NCBI GenBank assembly: GCA_016178725.1
Contig: JACOSV010000016.1
Coordinates: 11,132 to 75,131 of the forward strand
Reading direction: 5' to 3'
Length of the DNA stretch: 64,000 nucleotides
DNA from: Candidatus Eiseniibacteriota bacterium
Lineage (GTDB): Bacteria; Eisenbacteria; RBG-16-71-46
Shown here: positions 17,591-28,211 of the stretch, in pieces
How the letters are laid out: every line of letters begins with the position of its first letter
How positions within the stretch are numbered: the stretch's first letter is position 1
The notes under the pieces: generated by a model
Databases searched by the model: none
Seen by the model: only the letters and a program-made list of their open reading frames with translations
What the model was told of the DNA's origin: nothing
Made by a program: the position numbers and the translations under genes

Positions 17591-17667
<77 letters not shown>

Positions 17668-22565: not shown

Positions 22566-23474
22566 CTAGGCGCGGTGCGCGGAGATCCGCACCGCCGCGT
22601 CCACCGTCATGAGCACGTAGAGCAGGAAGAGATAGAGGATCGAGTAGCGGAAGAGCCGCATCGCGTGTGGCACGGTCGCGCTGCGCTGGAGCTGCAGCGC
22701 GAAGGCGATGAACACGACGCCCAGCACCAGCGCCGGCGCCCAGTAGACCGGCCCCGACACGCCGAGCGGCCCCAGCGCCAGCGTCACCGGCACCAGCGCC
22801 AGCGAGTAGAGCGCGATCTGGCGCCGCGTCTCCTCTTCGCCGTGCGTCACCGGCAGCATCGGCAGCCCCGCGCGCTCGTAGTCGTCGCGGCGGTAGAGCG
22901 AGAGCGCCCAGAAGTGCGGCGGCGTCCACAGGAACACGATCGCGGCGAGCAGCACCGCCGGCAGCTCGACGCGTCCCGTCACCGCCGCCCACGCGATGAG
23001 CGGCGCCGAGGCGCCGGCGGCGCCGCCGATCACGATGTTCTGCGGCGTGCGGCGCTTGAGCCACACCGAGTAGATCACGGCGTAGTAGACGATCGAGGCC
23101 ATCGCGATCGCCGCGGCGAGCACGTTGGCGAACATCACGAGCGTCAGCCACGCCAGCGCCGCGAGCAGGAACCCGAGCCCGAGCGCGTGCGCCGGCGGCA
23201 GCACGCCGGCCGGCAGCGGGCGCATGCGCGTGCGCTTCATCAGGGCGTCGATGTCGCGATCGACGTAGTGATTGAAGCTCGCCGCCGAGGCCGCGGCGAG
23301 CACGGTGCCCACCAGCGTGCCCCAGAAGAGCGGCGGCGGCGGCATGCCGCCGGCCGCCATCAGGAGCCCCGGCACGCCGGTGATCATCACCAGCATGACG
23401 ATGCGCGGCTTGGTGAGCTCGAGGTAGGCGAGCGCGCGCCGCCGCGCCGAGGCCGCGGGGACGGCGATGCTCAC
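22566..23474 (-). CDS. ctaB: protoheme IX farnesyltransferase (heme O synthase)
   Basis: C-terminal part of track ORF 22566..24767. The GTG at 23474 overlaps the ctaA stop (GTGA). Contains LELTKPRIV, NHYVDRDIDALMKRTRMRPLP and WTPPHFWALS. Confidence 0.9.
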   Translation of the reverse strand: MSIAVPAASARRRALAYLELTKPRIVMLVMITGVPGLLMAAGGMPPPPLFWGTLVGTVLAAASAASFNHYVDRDIDALMKRTRMRPLPAGVLPPAHALGLGFLLAALAWLTLVMFANVLAAAIAMASIVYYAVIYSVWLKRRTPQNIVIGGAAGASAPLIAWAAVTGRVELPAVLLAAIVFLWTPPHFWALSLYRRDDYERAGLPMLPVTHGEEETRRQIALYSLALVPVTLALGPLGVSGPVYWAPALVLGVVFIAFALQLQRSATVPHAMRLFRYSILYLFLLYVLMTVDAAVRISAHRA

Positions 23475-24466
23475 GCGGCCGCTCCGCCGATCGGCGCGCC
23501 CGGCGCCGCGTGCGCGGGCGCGCGCGCCGGCAGCGAGGCGACGCGCACGGTCGTCGCGAGCACGATCGCGAGCAGCGCGATCGCGGTCGCCAGATGCGCG
23601 GCCGAGAGCCACACCGGCGTTCCGAGGAACACGTTCGAGACGCCGAGCAGCACCTGCGCCACGACCAGCGTCAGCGCCAGCCGGCCGCAGGCGCGGATCG
23701 CGGCGTCGGGCGCGGTGCGCGTCGCGGTCGCGAGCACCAGCATCATCGCCGTCAGCGCATACGCGCCGTAGCGGTGCATCATCTGGAGACCGACGAGCCC
23801 GTCGAGCGGCGGGAACCACGCGCCGTTGCACGTCGGCCACTCCGGGCACACGAGCCCGGCGTGATGCGTGCTCACCATGCCGCCGAGCAGCGCCTGCGCG
23901 TACGTCATCACCGTCGCGACCGCGGCGAGCGGCAGGAGTCCGGCGGGCCGGGGCGGCGTCAGCGCTCCACGCGCGTCGTCCGATCCGGCGGCGGACTCGG
24001 CGTCGCCGGCATCCGATCCGGCGTCGCCGGCGCCGGCGCGCATCGTGTACGTCAGCAGCGTGCAGAAGAGCAGCATCGCGACCGCGAGGTGGCCGCTCAC
24101 GATCGACGGATCGAGCAGCTTCCACACCGTGAGCGCGCCGAGCAGCACCTGCGCGACGAGCAGCAGCACCGCGAGGCCGGCGAGCGCGCCGAACCGGACG
24201 CGCAGCGTCCGCGAGATCATCGTCGTCGCGGCGAGCGCCAGCACGGCGAGGCTCACGAGCAGCGCGATCAGCCGGTGCGTCCACTCGATCAGCACGTTCA
24301 TCTGGAGCGGCGGGATCAGCCGGCCCTGGCAGAGCGGCCAGTCCGGGCACGCGAGCCCCGATCCTGTGCTGCGCACCACCGAGCCGACCACGATCAGGGT
24401 GAACGTGAGCAGCGTGGTCGCGAGGCCGAGGCCCGCGGCGAATGCGAATGGGCGGCGTGGGGCCAA
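23471..24466 (-). CDS. ctaA: heme A synthase (COX15/CtaA)
   Basis: Track ORF. Has the paired CPDWPLC and CPEWPTC motifs, conserved His residues, and 8 TM helices. Confidence 0.85.
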   Translation of the reverse strand: MAPRRPFAFAAGLGLATTLLTFTLIVVGSVVRSTGSGLACPDWPLCQGRLIPPLQMNVLIEWTHRLIALLVSLAVLALAATTMISRTLRVRFGALAGLAVLLLVAQVLLGALTVWKLLDPSIVSGHLAVAMLLFCTLLTYTMRAGAGDAGSDAGDAESAAGSDDARGALTPPRPAGLLPLAAVATVMTYAQALLGGMVSTHHAGLVCPEWPTCNGAWFPPLDGLVGLQMMHRYGAYALTAMMLVLATATRTAPDAAIRACGRLALTLVVAQVLLGVSNVFLGTPVWLSAAHLATAIALLAIVLATTVRVASLPARAPAHAAPGAPIGGAAA

Positions 24467-24550: not shown

Positions 24551-25018
24551 ATGACCGAGCCGCTCTACGTCGCACGCGCCGTGATCGAGCCGATCGGCAA
24601 ACTCCAGCGCCGCGCGCGGCTCGAATCCGGCGCGACGATCGAGATGGGCGTCCATGGCGCGATCGCCACGCACTACCGACTCGACCCGCCGCGCCCGCTG
24701 CCGCTCCCGGTGGACTACATCGTCGCCGCGACCGGCGGCTGAATGCTCGGCACCCTGATCGGCGCACTGGACGTGCGTCAGGTGAAACTCGGTGAGGGCG
24801 CGCTGGTCGCGGAGGCCGAAGGCCATCACGCCATCCGCGAAGGGCTGCCGGTGCTCACCGAGGTGCGCGTGCGCTACCGGCTGCGGATTCCGGCGGGGAC
24901 GCGCGAGACGGTGGAACGCGCGCTATCGCGGCATCAGGAGAAGTGCCCGACCGCGGCGACGCTCGCGGGTGCGGTCGCGGTGAGCTGGACCGCGGAGATC
25001 GAGGAAGAGTCGGCCTAG
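24551..25018 (+). CDS. OsmC/Ohr-family peroxiredoxin-like protein with in-frame TGA (24740-24742) at the catalytic Cys position: candidate selenoprotein, otherwise a disrupted gene
   Basis: Track ORFs 24551..24742 and 24743..25018 are contiguous in one frame. The joined product reads ...PVDYIVAATGG-[TGA]-MLGTLIGAL...RHQEKCPTAATL. That places the TGA where OsmC-family proteins have the first conserved Cys (A-x-x-G-C), and the second conserved Cys (CP motif) is present. Total length is 155 codons, typical for the family. Confidence 0.55.
24751..24784 (+). other. stem-loop 9 nt downstream of the in-frame TGA (SECIS-like candidate)
   Basis: CACC (24751-54) pairs with GGTG (24781-84). GGCGCAC (24761-67) pairs with GTGCGTC (24773-79) with one G-U. 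The apical loop is UGGAC (24768-72), starting 26 nt after the UGA. G in the first loop positions is a feature of bacterial SECIS models. Confidence 0.35.
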
Positions 25019-26877
25019 TGCGGGACCGGCGTCAGGTCGGTGACCGGCCTGGGCGGAACGTTGTCGTTGCTGATCAGGAACAGCGCGTCCTCGGCGCCCA
25101 GCGTCACCGCGTTCACGCTCGATCCGTCGTTCACCGTCGGCGCGACGATGCCGGCGAGGTGATGGAACGTCTTCTCGAGCGGCACGGTGAGCGGCAAGAG
25201 CGAGGGATTGACCAGCACGATCCCGTTCTGGAAATCGCGCCGCCAGAGATTCGTCGCGCCGACCTCGAAGTGCACGTCGTCCACCCACACGTCGCCGGCC
25301 GCGGCCGCGAACGAGAAGCTCACGCCCGCGTTCCCCGACTGCGACGGTGACAGCACGACCTGGTAGTGCTTCCACGTCGTCGTGAGATCCACCGTCTGGT
25401 ACGCGACGCTGTTCGGCCCCGAAATGAACGCGGAGACGCCGAGCGGCCGCGCCGCCGAGCCCTTGGCCCAGAACGTCGCGGCGCACGCATTGCCCGCCGT
25501 CACCGGAATCCGGCCGAGGCACACGAGATTGACCTGCCAGTCGGCGACGCCGGGGCTCGGCACGTTGATGCGCGCCGACGCGCGGCCGAGCGCGGCGGTC
25601 GTCGTGTCCCACGCGATCGTGCCCGGGATGTTGGGCGTGAACTGCCAGTCGGTCGTCACGTCGTTCTCGAATCCCGGATTCTGCGGCGCGTCGGGGCCGG
25701 GACCGAGCCAGATCATCTGGCTCGCGCCGCCCAGGGGCAGGCCGAGCCAGCCGGTGTCTGCGAGGTTCCCGCTCGACTGCCCGGTCGCGAGGTTCACGGC
25801 GTACTCGTCGTACCACCACGTCGAGTAGTTGTACGTGCCGACCTCGCGCGCGCCGTAGCCGAACACGCCGAAGCCGCCGGCGAGCGCCGCGCTCGCGAGG
25901 CCGTAGCGCACCTTGCGCGCGTTGTTCGCGTTGTATGGGAACAGCGGCGGGTCGGCGGCCGAGAAGAGATAGTCGTGGCGCGGCGCGCGGAAGCGCTGCT
26001 CGTCGACGAAGTAGCCGCCCGGGTCGCGGAACATGTTCTGCTCCCAGTCGCCGCCGTTCTGGTACGGGAAGTTCTCGCGCATCCAGCCGTTCATGGGCGT
26101 GTACATCGTCCCCTGCCCGCAGTTGCCGACCAGCACGTACGTCGAGCCCGAGCGCGCGCGCAGCCGCGTCGCCAGCGTGTCCACGCCCGCGCGCCACCCG
26201 ATCGCGAACGCATCGAGCGAGCCGTAGCCGGCGCGCACGTAGTCGATGTGCGCGGTGGCGTTCTCGGTCCAGCGGATGTCCTCGCAGTACCCGTCGAGGA
26301 AGATGCCGTCCCACACGCCGGTCTTCGCGATCGCGTCGTCGAAGAGCGCCGCGAGGCTCTCGGCGACCACATAGCGCCCCTGCGCATCGCGCTTCGCGAT
26401 GTTGACGTTCGCCTGCACGTACTCGGTGCCGCTCTGGTCGTAGAGATAGCCGCCGAGGTTGCGGATCAGATGATGGAAGCGCGTCGGATAATGGACGAGC
26501 GAATCCTGATCCTCGGCGGGCCAGATGTACTCGGCGTTGACGTAGCCCAGGAGCGAGACGCCGGGATGCCGCTGGCGCAGCGCCAGGGCGACGTCGCGGC
26601 GGTACTCGCTGATCGGGCTCGCGTCGAGGATCACCTCGTCGTAGCGCGCGACCGAGTCGCACATCGCCGGATCGAGCGGGCCGAGGCGATTGCCGCCGAG
26701 GATGTACGGAAAGCCGTTGCCGTTGATCCCGCCGTAGAGCCCGAGCCGCGGGTAGCCGCCGGCCGAGGCGGCGGGCGCGAGCACCGCGACGCACAGCGCG
26801 GCGAGGCCGAGCGCGAGCGCGGCGGAGCGCGGGCGGCCGGACAAGGCGAGGCCTAAGAGGCGAAAGGACGGGCTCAT
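25015..26877 (-). CDS. secreted putative glycoside hydrolase (TIM-barrel, GHL-type) with C-terminal CBM4/9-like carbohydrate-binding module
   Basis: The internal ATG at 26877 gives signal peptide MSPSFRLLGLALSGRPRSAALALGLAALCVAVLAPAASA. The middle region resembles hypothetical glycosyl-hydrolase-like families (DGIFLDGY...). The C-terminus has NPGFENDVTTDWQF...FWAKG...W..Y, which is CBM-like. The family assignment is tentative. Confidence 0.5.
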   Translation of the reverse strand: MSPSFRLLGLALSGRPRSAALALGLAALCVAVLAPAASAGGYPRLGLYGGINGNGFPYILGGNRLGPLDPAMCDSVARYDEVILDASPISEYRRDVALALRQRHPGVSLLGYVNAEYIWPAEDQDSLVHYPTRFHHLIRNLGGYLYDQSGTEYVQANVNIAKRDAQGRYVVAESLAALFDDAIAKTGVWDGIFLDGYCEDIRWTENATAHIDYVRAGYGSLDAFAIGWRAGVDTLATRLRARSGSTYVLVGNCGQGTMYTPMNGWMRENFPYQNGGDWEQNMFRDPGGYFVDEQRFRAPRHDYLFSAADPPLFPYNANNARKVRYGLASAALAGGFGVFGYGAREVGTYNYSTWWYDEYAVNLATGQSSGNLADTGWLGLPLGGASQMIWLGPGPDAPQNPGFENDVTTDWQFTPNIPGTIAWDTTTAALGRASARINVPSPGVADWQVNLVCLGRIPVTAGNACAATFWAKGSAARPLGVSAFISGPNSVAYQTVDLTTTWKHYQVVLSPSQSGNAGVSFSFAAAAGDVWVDDVHFEVGATNLWRRDFQNGIVLVNPSLLPLTVPLEKTFHHLAGIVAPTVNDGSSVNAVTLGAEDALFLISNDNVPPRPVTDLTPVPH

Positions 26878-27023: not shown

Positions 27024-28211
27024 ATGCACACGATCTCCGGCTTCCGAGCGCGCGCGAACGGCGCCCTGCGCCTGCTCGGCGCCGCCGCCGGGCGCTCGCT
27101 CGTCGGGCCGCGCGTCGTCGGCCTCGAGATCACGCACTTCTGCAACTTGAAGTGCGGGTTCTGCGAGACCCACGGCTTCCTGATGCCGGCGCCGATCATC
27201 CATCGCCGCGCCTACGAGGGCGGGCGGAAGTCGATGGACCTGCCGACCATCGAGCGGCTGTGCGGCTCGCTCGCGAAGCTCGGCGTCGCGTGGGTCGAGC
27301 TCTCGGGCAAGGGCGATCCGATCGTCCATCCCAAGCTCCCCGAGATCGTGCGCGTCATCAAGCAGGCCGGGCTCCAGTGCTCGATGTTCACGAACGGCAC
27401 CGTGCCGCGGCCCGATCTCGCCGCGACGCTGGTGGACGCGGGACTCGATCGCCTGAACATCTCGCTCAACGCCGCGACCCGCGAGAGCTACGCGCGCGTC
27501 GCAGGCAAGGATCTCTGGGACAAAGTCATCGCGTTCCTCGACGACGTGCTGGCGCTGCGCTCGCGCGCGGGCGGCGGGCGCCCGTGGGTGCGGTTGAGCT
27601 TCGTCGTCAACCGCGACAACGTGGACGACATGGAACGTTCGGTCGCCTTCTGCCGCGAGAAGGGCGTCAACGAAGGCGGGTGGTGCGTGATGGGCGAGCT
27701 ACCCGAGACGACCCGCCTCCAGCTCGACCACGCGCAGGTCGAGACGCTGCTCGCCGGACTGCCCGGCTGGATCGCGTCGCTCGAGGCCGCCGGCGTCACG
27801 CACGACCTCGCCGGCTTCACCGAAGACCTGAAGTCGCGCGTCGGCACGCCCGGGGAACAGAACAACCCGCTCCAGCGCTCGCTCCCCTGCTACGAAGGCT
27901 GGATGCACACGGTCATCAGCCCCGACGGCGCGGTGACGCCGTGCTGCTACTGCGAAGACGAGAAGTTCGGCAACGTGTTCGATCAGGACTTCACGGACAT
28001 CTGGCACGGCGCGAAGTACGCCGACTTCCGCCGTCGCTCGCTGGCGATGGCCGAGACGCACGAGCCGATCTGCTGGGAGTGCTTCACCACCTGCAACCGC
28101 GCGCTCCAGAACCGGCGCATCCACGAGCGGCTGGGGCCGCTGGTCACGATCCGGCAGCTGACCGGCGCGCGGCGCAACGGACACGCGGCGAACGGAGCCC
28201 CCGCGGCTTGA
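27024..28211 (+). CDS. radical SAM enzyme with C-terminal SPASM/twitch Cys-rich domain
   Basis: ATG at 27024 within track ORF 26928..28211. Contains THFCNLKCGFCE (CxxxCxxC) and the C-terminal Cys cluster LPCYEGW...PDGAVTPCCYC...GNV...ICWECFTTC. Confidence 0.85.
   Translation: MHTISGFRARANGALRLLGAAAGRSLVGPRVVGLEITHFCNLKCGFCETHGFLMPAPIIHRRAYEGGRKSMDLPTIERLCGSLAKLGVAWVELSGKGDPIVHPKLPEIVRVIKQAGLQCSMFTNGTVPRPDLAATLVDAGLDRLNISLNAATRESYARVAGKDLWDKVIAFLDDVLALRSRAGGGRPWVRLSFVVNRDNVDDMERSVAFCREKGVNEGGWCVMGELPETTRLQLDHAQVETLLAGLPGWIASLEAAGVTHDLAGFTEDLKSRVGTPGEQNNPLQRSLPCYEGWMHTVISPDGAVTPCCYCEDEKFGNVFDQDFTDIWHGAKYADFRRRSLAMAETHEPICWECFTTCNRALQNRRIHERLGPLVTIRQLTGARRNGHAANGAPAA

Follow-up and report, generated by a model that had tools for sequence, protein, structure and literature searches.

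Selenoproteins of the OsmC-like family have been known since the Sargasso Sea selenoproteome survey of Zhang, Fomenko and Gladyshev (2005; PMC1088965), and the family is still listed among the prokaryotic selenoproteins, with the motif UxxT (PMC9312934, PMC13188914). The same superfamily includes the lipoyl-dependent, Cys-based hydroperoxide reductases Ohr and OsmC, whose paired redox-active Cys residues lie ∼60 residues apart (PMC5384416) and whose active sites also contain a catalytic Arg and a catalytic Glu located 10 residues ahead of the peroxidatic Cys (PMC5384416, PMC5962072). The 64,000-nucleotide (nt) stretch of contig JACOSV010000016.1 analyzed here (referred to below as the window), which comes from a Candidatus Eiseniibacteriota bacterium, contains at positions 24551 to 25018 what is very probably one functional gene, encoding a 155-residue member of the OsmC/Ohr superfamily, in which the in-frame UGA at positions 24740 to 24742 would be read as selenocysteine (Sec64; U in sequences). 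This reading, which comparative sequence analysis supports, had been proposed in a first-pass annotation of the window made without database searches; its statement that OsmC-like selenoproteins had been predicted from metagenomes was correct, as the Sargasso Sea survey attests.

An in-frame UGA at a conserved cysteine column

The Sargasso Sea family (COG1765/YhfA-type) was represented in the comparisons by sequence AACY01145085 from the supplement of PMC1088965. It resembles the window protein in belonging to the OsmC superfamily, in having Sec at the homologous column (...PLAYIVAGIGF-U-LLT and ...PVDYIVAATGG-U-MLGT, respectively), in the presence of a second Cys ∼65 to 70 residues further on, and in a short hairpin with a G in its loop ∼20 to 25 nt past the UGA. 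The two proteins are only 28% identical over 79 residues; the Sargasso protein has 137 residues and the motif UxxT, whereas the window clade has U-x-x-x-T and the window protein 155 residues, and the sequences of the predicted Sec insertion elements are unrelated. On NF041052 (OsmC_like_Se; cutoff, 95 bits), which is the sole NCBIfam model with any match to the window protein, the Sargasso reference scores 157.4 bits, compared to 24.9 bits for the window protein and 25.6 to 26.5 bits for its relatives, i.e., 25 to 26 bits for the group. The idea that this protein is a member of the previously described OsmC-like selenoprotein family thus has to be abandoned. The hosts differ as well: the Sargasso sequence comes from a surface-water metagenome, and the window clade is found in GC-rich metagenome-assembled genomes (MAGs) of Eisenbacteria, Gemmatimonadota, and related bacteria. 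The principle is therefore a known one, but judging by these scores and alignments, the window clade is separate from the described family and is not captured by the current models. The literature searched, the coverage of which was incomplete so that novelty is unproven, yielded no paper that linked Eisenbacteria to selenoproteins or treated the selenoproteins of Gemmatimonadota.

The open reading frame (ORF) list of the window, which has a GC content of 71%, includes two adjacent ORFs of 63 and 91 codons that share one frame and have a TGA between them. Re-reading of the sequence agreed with the first-pass annotation that they join into a single frame of 155 codons (63 + 1 + 91; 156 counting the terminal stop) broken only by this TGA, which interrupts the peptide VAATGG-[UGA]-MLGTL, and that the second conserved Cys, within the peptide EKCPTAATL, is intact (Table 1).

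Among 214 loci confirmed by tblastn in the species-representative genomes of GTDB, the 80 best were examined for the state of the UGA codon; they come mostly from MAGs of Candidatus Eisenbacteria and Gemmatimonadota, with some from Acidobacteriota and other groups. Of the 81 sequences compared (these loci and the window), 80 have TGA at the homologous codon, namely the window and 79 of the 80 loci, and one has TGC. This prevalence is not an artefact of selection, because the query alignment was made up mostly of Cys forms. The TGA-bearing related loci come from several phyla and encode proteins with 55 to 70% identity, and the stretches downstream of the UGA all differ from one another in the 81 sequences. 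The first-pass annotation had proposed that the TGA replaced a conserved Cys, which was borne out by alignments: the column is occupied by Cys in 18 of the 21 close full-length relatives (the remaining three have Trp, in two cases, or Gly) and in 54 of 70 more distant full-length homologues, and the first active-site Cys of the Thermus thermophilus OsmC (PDB entry 1ukk) aligns to it. The relatives with Trp (P0030 and P0031) and Gly (P0027) appear to be derived from the UGA state, with loss of the redox residue. Tryptophan has UGG as its sole codon, one base away from UGA.

A database search with the joined product retrieved ∼30 full-length homologues (152 to 161 residues) and far more short proteins (∼89 to 97 residues) that span only the C-terminal 57 to 59% of the query. 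Every short protein inspected begins with MLGTL or MMGTL, i.e., with the residue directly after the UGA column, and the same position provides the first residue in 86 of the top 120 database homologues. The matching N-terminal halves, orphan entries of ∼62 to 66 residues that end in ...PLPVDYxVAAxGG, are found in the 50%-clustered protein library, where at least 14 cluster representatives terminate exactly before the UGA column. The gene in the window has been called as two ORFs in assembly GCA_016194775.1, and a 90-residue fragment of one relative is named "OsmC family protein" by NCBI. Storage of both halves as separate proteins is a systematic artefact, and mis-annotation of the clade is extensive.

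The part of the gene that precedes the UGA shows every sign of being translated. In all 80 Sec-form sequences, the 58 codons that lead up to the UGA are free of stops, and in 78 of them a start codon occupies the corresponding position, 61 to 65 codons upstream of the UGA. The ratio of nonsynonymous to synonymous substitution rates (dN/dS, NG86 method) is 0.40 in the 35-codon N-terminal block, 0.11 in the 14 codons before the UGA, and 0.21 in the 16 codons after it. The upstream part is live coding sequence, and purifying selection acts on both sides of the UGA. Conservation of the TGA without signs of decay, which had been put forward as a check on a possible pseudogene, is thus what was observed.

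A covarying hairpin and its fate in the cysteine forms

The published model of the bacterial Sec insertion sequence (SECIS) calls for a loop of 3 to 9 nt, a stem of 4 to 16 bp, a G in one of the first two loop positions, and a distance of 16 to 37 nt from the UGA with a minimum free energy of ≤-7.5 kcal/mol (PMC13188914). The hairpin of the window starts 18 nt 3' of the UGA and lies within all four limits, with a 5-nt loop (G in position 2), a 7-bp stem, a UGA-to-loop gap of 25 nt, and an energy of -9.8 kcal/mol. Among the 80 Sec forms, the G rule holds in 75, the energy rule in 74, and 77 have stems of at least 6 bp. The commonest loop in the relatives, U-GG-A-G/A, matches the pattern N1-G-[G|U]-N-N2. 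Compared to the bSECISearch consensus (PMC13188914, Fig. 2), the upper stem (6 to 7 bp), the loop position at 25 nt from the UGA, and the energy below -7.5 kcal/mol are all similar; the difference is that the window element has no conserved lower stem and is a minimal hairpin located inside the conserved peptide G-A-L-E-V/A-R. The first-pass annotation had described a longer structure; its 7-bp upper stem and UGGAC loop stood up, and so did the claim that they fit the distance range and the G-in-loop rule of bacterial SECIS elements. The lower stem that it had added (24751-24754 with 24781-24784) did not: it is paired in 60.7% of cases, a value equalled by 115 of 500 shuffles, and was rejected as a part of the SECIS.

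An RNAalifold run on the gap-free 54-nt alignment that begins at the UGA returned one conserved helix. The stem tested comprises alignment columns 22 to 28 paired with columns 34 to 40, which are the two arms listed in Table 1, in 77 distinct sequences. Overall, 89.6% of the stem cells are paired, and the six inner pairs are each kept in 76 or 77 of the 77 sequences. The outermost pair, 22-40, is confined to Gln-type sequences, including that of the window. Two-sided changes are seen at three pairs: 23-39 (GC, GU, and CG), 26-36 (CG, UA, GC, and GU), and 27-35 (AU in 40 sequences, GC in 29, and GU in 7). The covariation score was matched by none of 500 shuffles, in a test that ignores kinship among the sequences, and it collapses when the partner strand is slid by 1 to 3 columns. 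Pair 27-35 couples a synonymous third position of an Ala codon (GCA/GCG) to a Val/Ala replacement (GUG/GCG), which points to selection on the RNA, as a protein-level constraint would not explain such coupling. This also means that the predicted SECIS would constrain the protein sequence, with the Val/Ala replacement covarying with a synonymous Ala site. The significance of the hairpin comes from this comparative evidence and not from the fold of the window sequence alone. Taken together, these patterns identify it as a conserved and covarying SECIS element, predicted from the alignment, that is tied to the UGA. With its G-containing apical loop, it would bring SelB, loaded with Sec-tRNA(Sec), to a ribosome that has paused at the UGA and thereby direct SelB-dependent insertion of Sec.

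A Gemmatimonadota/Longimicrobiales sub-clade (loci L025, L030, L034, L036, and L042) encodes the peptide GALAVR and lacks a G in loop positions 1 and 2, the loop being UCGCC. In these sequences, RNAfold pairs columns 22 to 28 with columns ∼42 to 49 (e.g., GGUGCAC...GUGCACC), ∼20 to 50 nt after the TGA. This hairpin may represent a remodelled SECIS.

Given that the hairpin sits in a conserved peptide in GC-rich DNA and could have been a by-product of coding, it was compared with the same region in the Cys forms of the family. The control set consisted of seven genes (L041 and L081 to L086). All six core pairs are intact in 77 of the 80 Sec forms and in 2 of the 7 Cys forms (Fisher's exact test, p = 3e-5). 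In L081, the peptide GALEVRQV is the same as in Sec forms, and L086 has GALEVRQI; the codons used in both of them disrupt the stem. L083 and L041, the two in which the hairpin persists, fall into the Cys clades nearest the window in a neighbour-joining tree. In this tree, which is a rough one, the backbone is Sec, and the Cys forms are nested in it as at least three clades. Tentatively, this distribution suggests that Sec is the older state and that repeated Sec-to-Cys changes were followed by decay of the SECIS. A broader scenario would combine an undescribed clade of the OsmC superfamily in which Sec is both ancestral and prevailing, at least three Sec-to-Cys changes with a relic SECIS in the latest of them, Sec decoding in Eisenbacteria and Gemmatimonadota, and a family that current annotation models miss and that public databases store as hundreds of orphaned halves; as a package, it falls slightly short of an even chance. 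If it holds, the family offers a clean natural experiment on Sec/Cys exchange, in which the SECIS would be kept in the youngest Cys forms and decayed in the older ones.

Selenocysteine decoding and its rivals

The alternative named in the first-pass annotation, a nonsense-disrupted gene or an assembly error, is countered by the TGA in 79 of the 80 loci, by its presence in other assemblies, and by the covarying hairpin. A pseudogene, in which the TGA would have arisen recently as an inactivating mutation and left the two ORFs to decay, could draw on the fact that gene callers and the NCBI annotation give two ORFs or a truncated "OsmC family protein" and that no Sec machinery was found in the window or the loci scanned. 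However, recent inactivation does not agree with a TGA shared by loci from different phyla at 55 to 70% protein identity, with the lack of a single upstream stop in the 80 Sec forms and dN/dS values of 0.11 to 0.40, or with the conservation of a covarying hairpin downstream, and the 81 distinct downstream stretches speak against copies of one contaminant, making this explanation highly improbable. As for a sequencing or assembly error that turned TGC or TGT into TGA, a single base separates TGA from a Cys codon, and Cys forms do exist among the close relatives (L083 and P0001). Against this, the TGA and its flanks are identical in the NCBI MAG contig JACQAY010000078.1 and in the Logan assembly of SRR12113409 (two near-identical assemblies that may share reads), and the TGA recurs in 79 independently assembled related loci; an error is the most improbable of all the rivals considered.

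The UGA could also be a genuine stop, with translation restarting at the adjacent AUG (UGAAUG) and the 63- and 91-residue products assembling into a protein that lacks the first catalytic residue. The codon after the TGA is ATG in the window, as it is in 76 of the 80 Sec forms, and databases call both halves as separate ORFs. Yet Cys forms conserve this Met to the same extent (C-M-L-G-T), which makes it a feature of the protein rather than a restart signal, and four Sec forms (L015, L047, L050, and L073) have CTA or CTG in its place. Such a split gene would lack the one residue for which all active relatives have Cys and would leave the UGA-tied hairpin without a role, and it appears very unlikely, if not quite to the same degree as a pseudogene. 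Finally, the UGA might be read through without Sec, either by near-cognate insertion of Trp or Cys or by a recoding signal other than SelB and SECIS. This would accommodate the rare relatives with Trp or Gly at this column and the lack of matches to Sec machinery in the window and the loci scanned; it would not explain why the loop size, the position of the G, the spacing, and the energy of the hairpin all fit the SelB-type SECIS model, nor why the column holds the redox-active Cys in homologues, the classical Sec/Cys pairing. UGA is also the commonest ordinary stop in the window. This rival, too, is very unlikely, even though it is the least improbable of the four. Genome-wide reassignment of UGA was rejected on the same grounds, as TGA terminates 24 of the 38 long coding-like ORFs in the window.

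Decoding of the UGA as Sec is the preferred reading, and several results weigh against it. No tRNA-Sec was detected by ARAGORN or Rfam in the window, where tRNA-Met was the only tRNA found, or in 60 scanned loci. Likewise, tblastn searches with SelD, SelA, and SelB from E. coli produced no true match in the window or the loci examined; the sole match was to IF2 (infB), through the GTPase domain of SelB. A conservation-based scan of ∼1.3 Mb revealed no second conserved in-frame TGA, the other clusters being adjacent genes that share a frame. Absence of the Sec genes is uninformative, because the window covers ∼64 kb of a multi-Mb genome. Folding of the single sequence gave z scores, relative to shuffles, of -1.05 for 61 nt, +0.57 for 54 nt, and -2.83 for the 19-nt core, which alone stood out, and was dropped as evidence for a SECIS, being insignificant in a 71% GC context; the neglect of kinship in the covariation test belongs to the same account. 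A scan of the window for TGA-joined ORFs based on third-codon-position GC content (GC3) was also discarded as too noisy, since antisense frames have high GC3 as well.

Protein family, predicted chemistry, and gene surroundings

With the stop replaced by Cys, the joined product matches the Pfam OsmC domain (PF02566) over residues 51 to 146 with an E value of 5.7e-11 and a score of 43.2 bits (gathering threshold, 27.5 bits). Its AlphaFold2 model (pLDDT, 95.7) is a complete OsmC/Ohr domain, in which residues 1 to 63 provide three strands and a helix that ends just before Sec64, and Sec64 begins the next helix. The 50 best Foldseek matches of the model in the PDB are all OsmC, Ohr, or OsmC-like proteins, with a probability of 1.00 and TM scores of 0.64 to 0.77. 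The fold is thus the one found in the Cys-based enzymes of the superfamily (1ukk, 1vla, 6ebg, 1n2f, and 1qwi), with which the window protein shares redox residues ∼60 to 70 residues apart at aligned positions and an Arg between the first two strands; it differs from them in having Sec for the peroxidatic Cys and Val54 at the position of the catalytic Glu, with Asp55 next to it. The coordinates of these features are collected in Table 1.

Table 1. Features of the predicted selenoprotein gene and its hairpin in the window
Feature	Positions	Strand	Details
Predicted selenoprotein gene, complete	24551-25018	+	155 codons including Sec64; ATG at 24551; stop codon TAG at 25016-25018
Predicted Sec64 codon (in-frame TGA), peroxidatic position	24740-24742	+	TGA conservation; Cys in full-length homologues
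Predicted SECIS core hairpin	24761-24779	+	5' arm GGCGCAC, 24761-24767; loop UGGAC, 24768-24772; 3' arm GUGCGUC, 24773-24779
Cys132 codon (TGC), proposed resolving Cys	24944-24946	+	Conservation; counterpart in 1ukk is the second active-site Cys
Asp55 codon (GAC), conserved acidic residue	24713-24715	+	9 positions before Sec; putative role
Arg20 codon (CGC), candidate catalytic Arg	24608-24610	+	Putative role

In the sequence alignment with the T. thermophilus OsmC (1ukk), the two active-site Cys residues correspond to U64 and C132, which are separated by 68 residues. Cys132 is invariant in the close relatives and present in 57 of the 70 distant ones. Arg20 is likewise invariant in the close relatives, with Arg or Lys in 54 of the 70 distant homologues, and is found at the turn between the first two β-strands of the model; the catalytic Arg of Ohr has been reported between the first two strands (PMC5384416). 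Asp55, which adjoins Val54, is nearly invariant in the close relatives and conserved as Asp in 66 of the 70 distant ones. His128, located 4 residues ahead of Cys132, is invariant in the close relatives and is His in 55 of the 70 distant homologues; in these alignments it emerges as a family-specific feature.

The first-pass assignment to the OsmC/Ohr family holds at the level of the superfamily (PF02566 and the fold) but not for OsmC proper, whose model, TIGR03562, was missed. Neither TIGR03562 nor the Ohr model TIGR03561 matched the window protein at E ≤ 1, and the close relatives score 13 to 17 bits on these models, versus cutoffs of 85.8 and 88.85 bits, respectively. Membership in OsmC proper, in Ohr proper, or in NF041052 was rejected, as the curated cutoffs were missed. 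Because the curated OsmC and Ohr models fail, Val54 occupies the position of the Glu, and His128 is specific to the family, the protein can be placed, on sequence grounds, among the "Ohr-like" proteins, the third and poorly characterised branch of the superfamily. The wider family numbers 576 representatives at E ≤ 1e-3, which are mainly Cys-based and carry the signature xTLDYxVAAxxGC(L/M)xGT...H...CP.

By analogy with Ohr and OsmC (PMC5384416), the likeliest chemistry is a Sec-based hydroperoxide reductase cycle. Sec64 would replace the peroxidatic Cys at the start of the active-site helix and attack an oxidant, most likely a hydroperoxide; the resulting selenenic acid would be resolved by Cys132 to form an intramolecular selenenylsulfide, and the enzyme could then be regenerated by a dithiol reductant of the lipoyl or thioredoxin type. 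This chemistry is less secure than the decoding of the UGA. The alignment of the canonical catalytic Glu to Val54 and the lack of matches to the OsmC and Ohr models both count against it, as does the report that some "Ohr-like" proteins have no thiol peroxidase activity (PMC4069020). If the assignment is true, this would be a selenium-dependent member of the third branch and a good target for finding out what Sec buys in this fold.

To selenoprotein specialists, the existence of such a protein should come as no surprise, since OsmC-like selenoproteins have been known since 2005; its main value lies in annotation and in Sec/Cys evolution. Hundreds of gene calls would be mended by a model built for the clade with Sec at position 64, which would also provide a simple trait marker of Sec decoding for MAGs of Eisenbacteria and Gemmatimonadota.

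In the window, the OsmC-like gene is transcribed divergently from the COX15/CtaA (heme A synthase) gene (23471-24466, minus strand), beyond which lie UbiA/CtaB and cytochrome oxidase genes. On the other side, it converges with a GHL15/CBM_4_9 gene (25015-26844, minus strand), and the stops of the two genes overlap. The Gemmatimonadota-type orthologue is found upstream of rimP-nusA-infB. Because the Eisenbacteria-type and Gemmatimonadota-type neighborhoods differ, no conserved functional partner could be inferred from gene context in these two types of loci.

Further downstream, a 176-bp segment of the window (27033-27208) is missing from the near-identical contig JACQAY010000078.1 (L089). It encodes the N terminus of a radical-SAM/SPASM protein, including the C-x3-C-x2-C motif (HFCNLKCGFCETHG). 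Its length is not a multiple of 3, which suggests either an assembly difference or a strain-level deletion. Upstream, a tRNA-Met(CAT) gene at positions 17591 to 17667 precedes the OsmC-like gene, and the same tRNA is found ∼2 to 7 kb upstream of that gene in the window and in Eisenbacteria-type loci (in L001, L003 to L007, and L011, at ∼3.7 to 7.9 kb). This conserved synteny places the window in the Eisenbacteria-type lineage.

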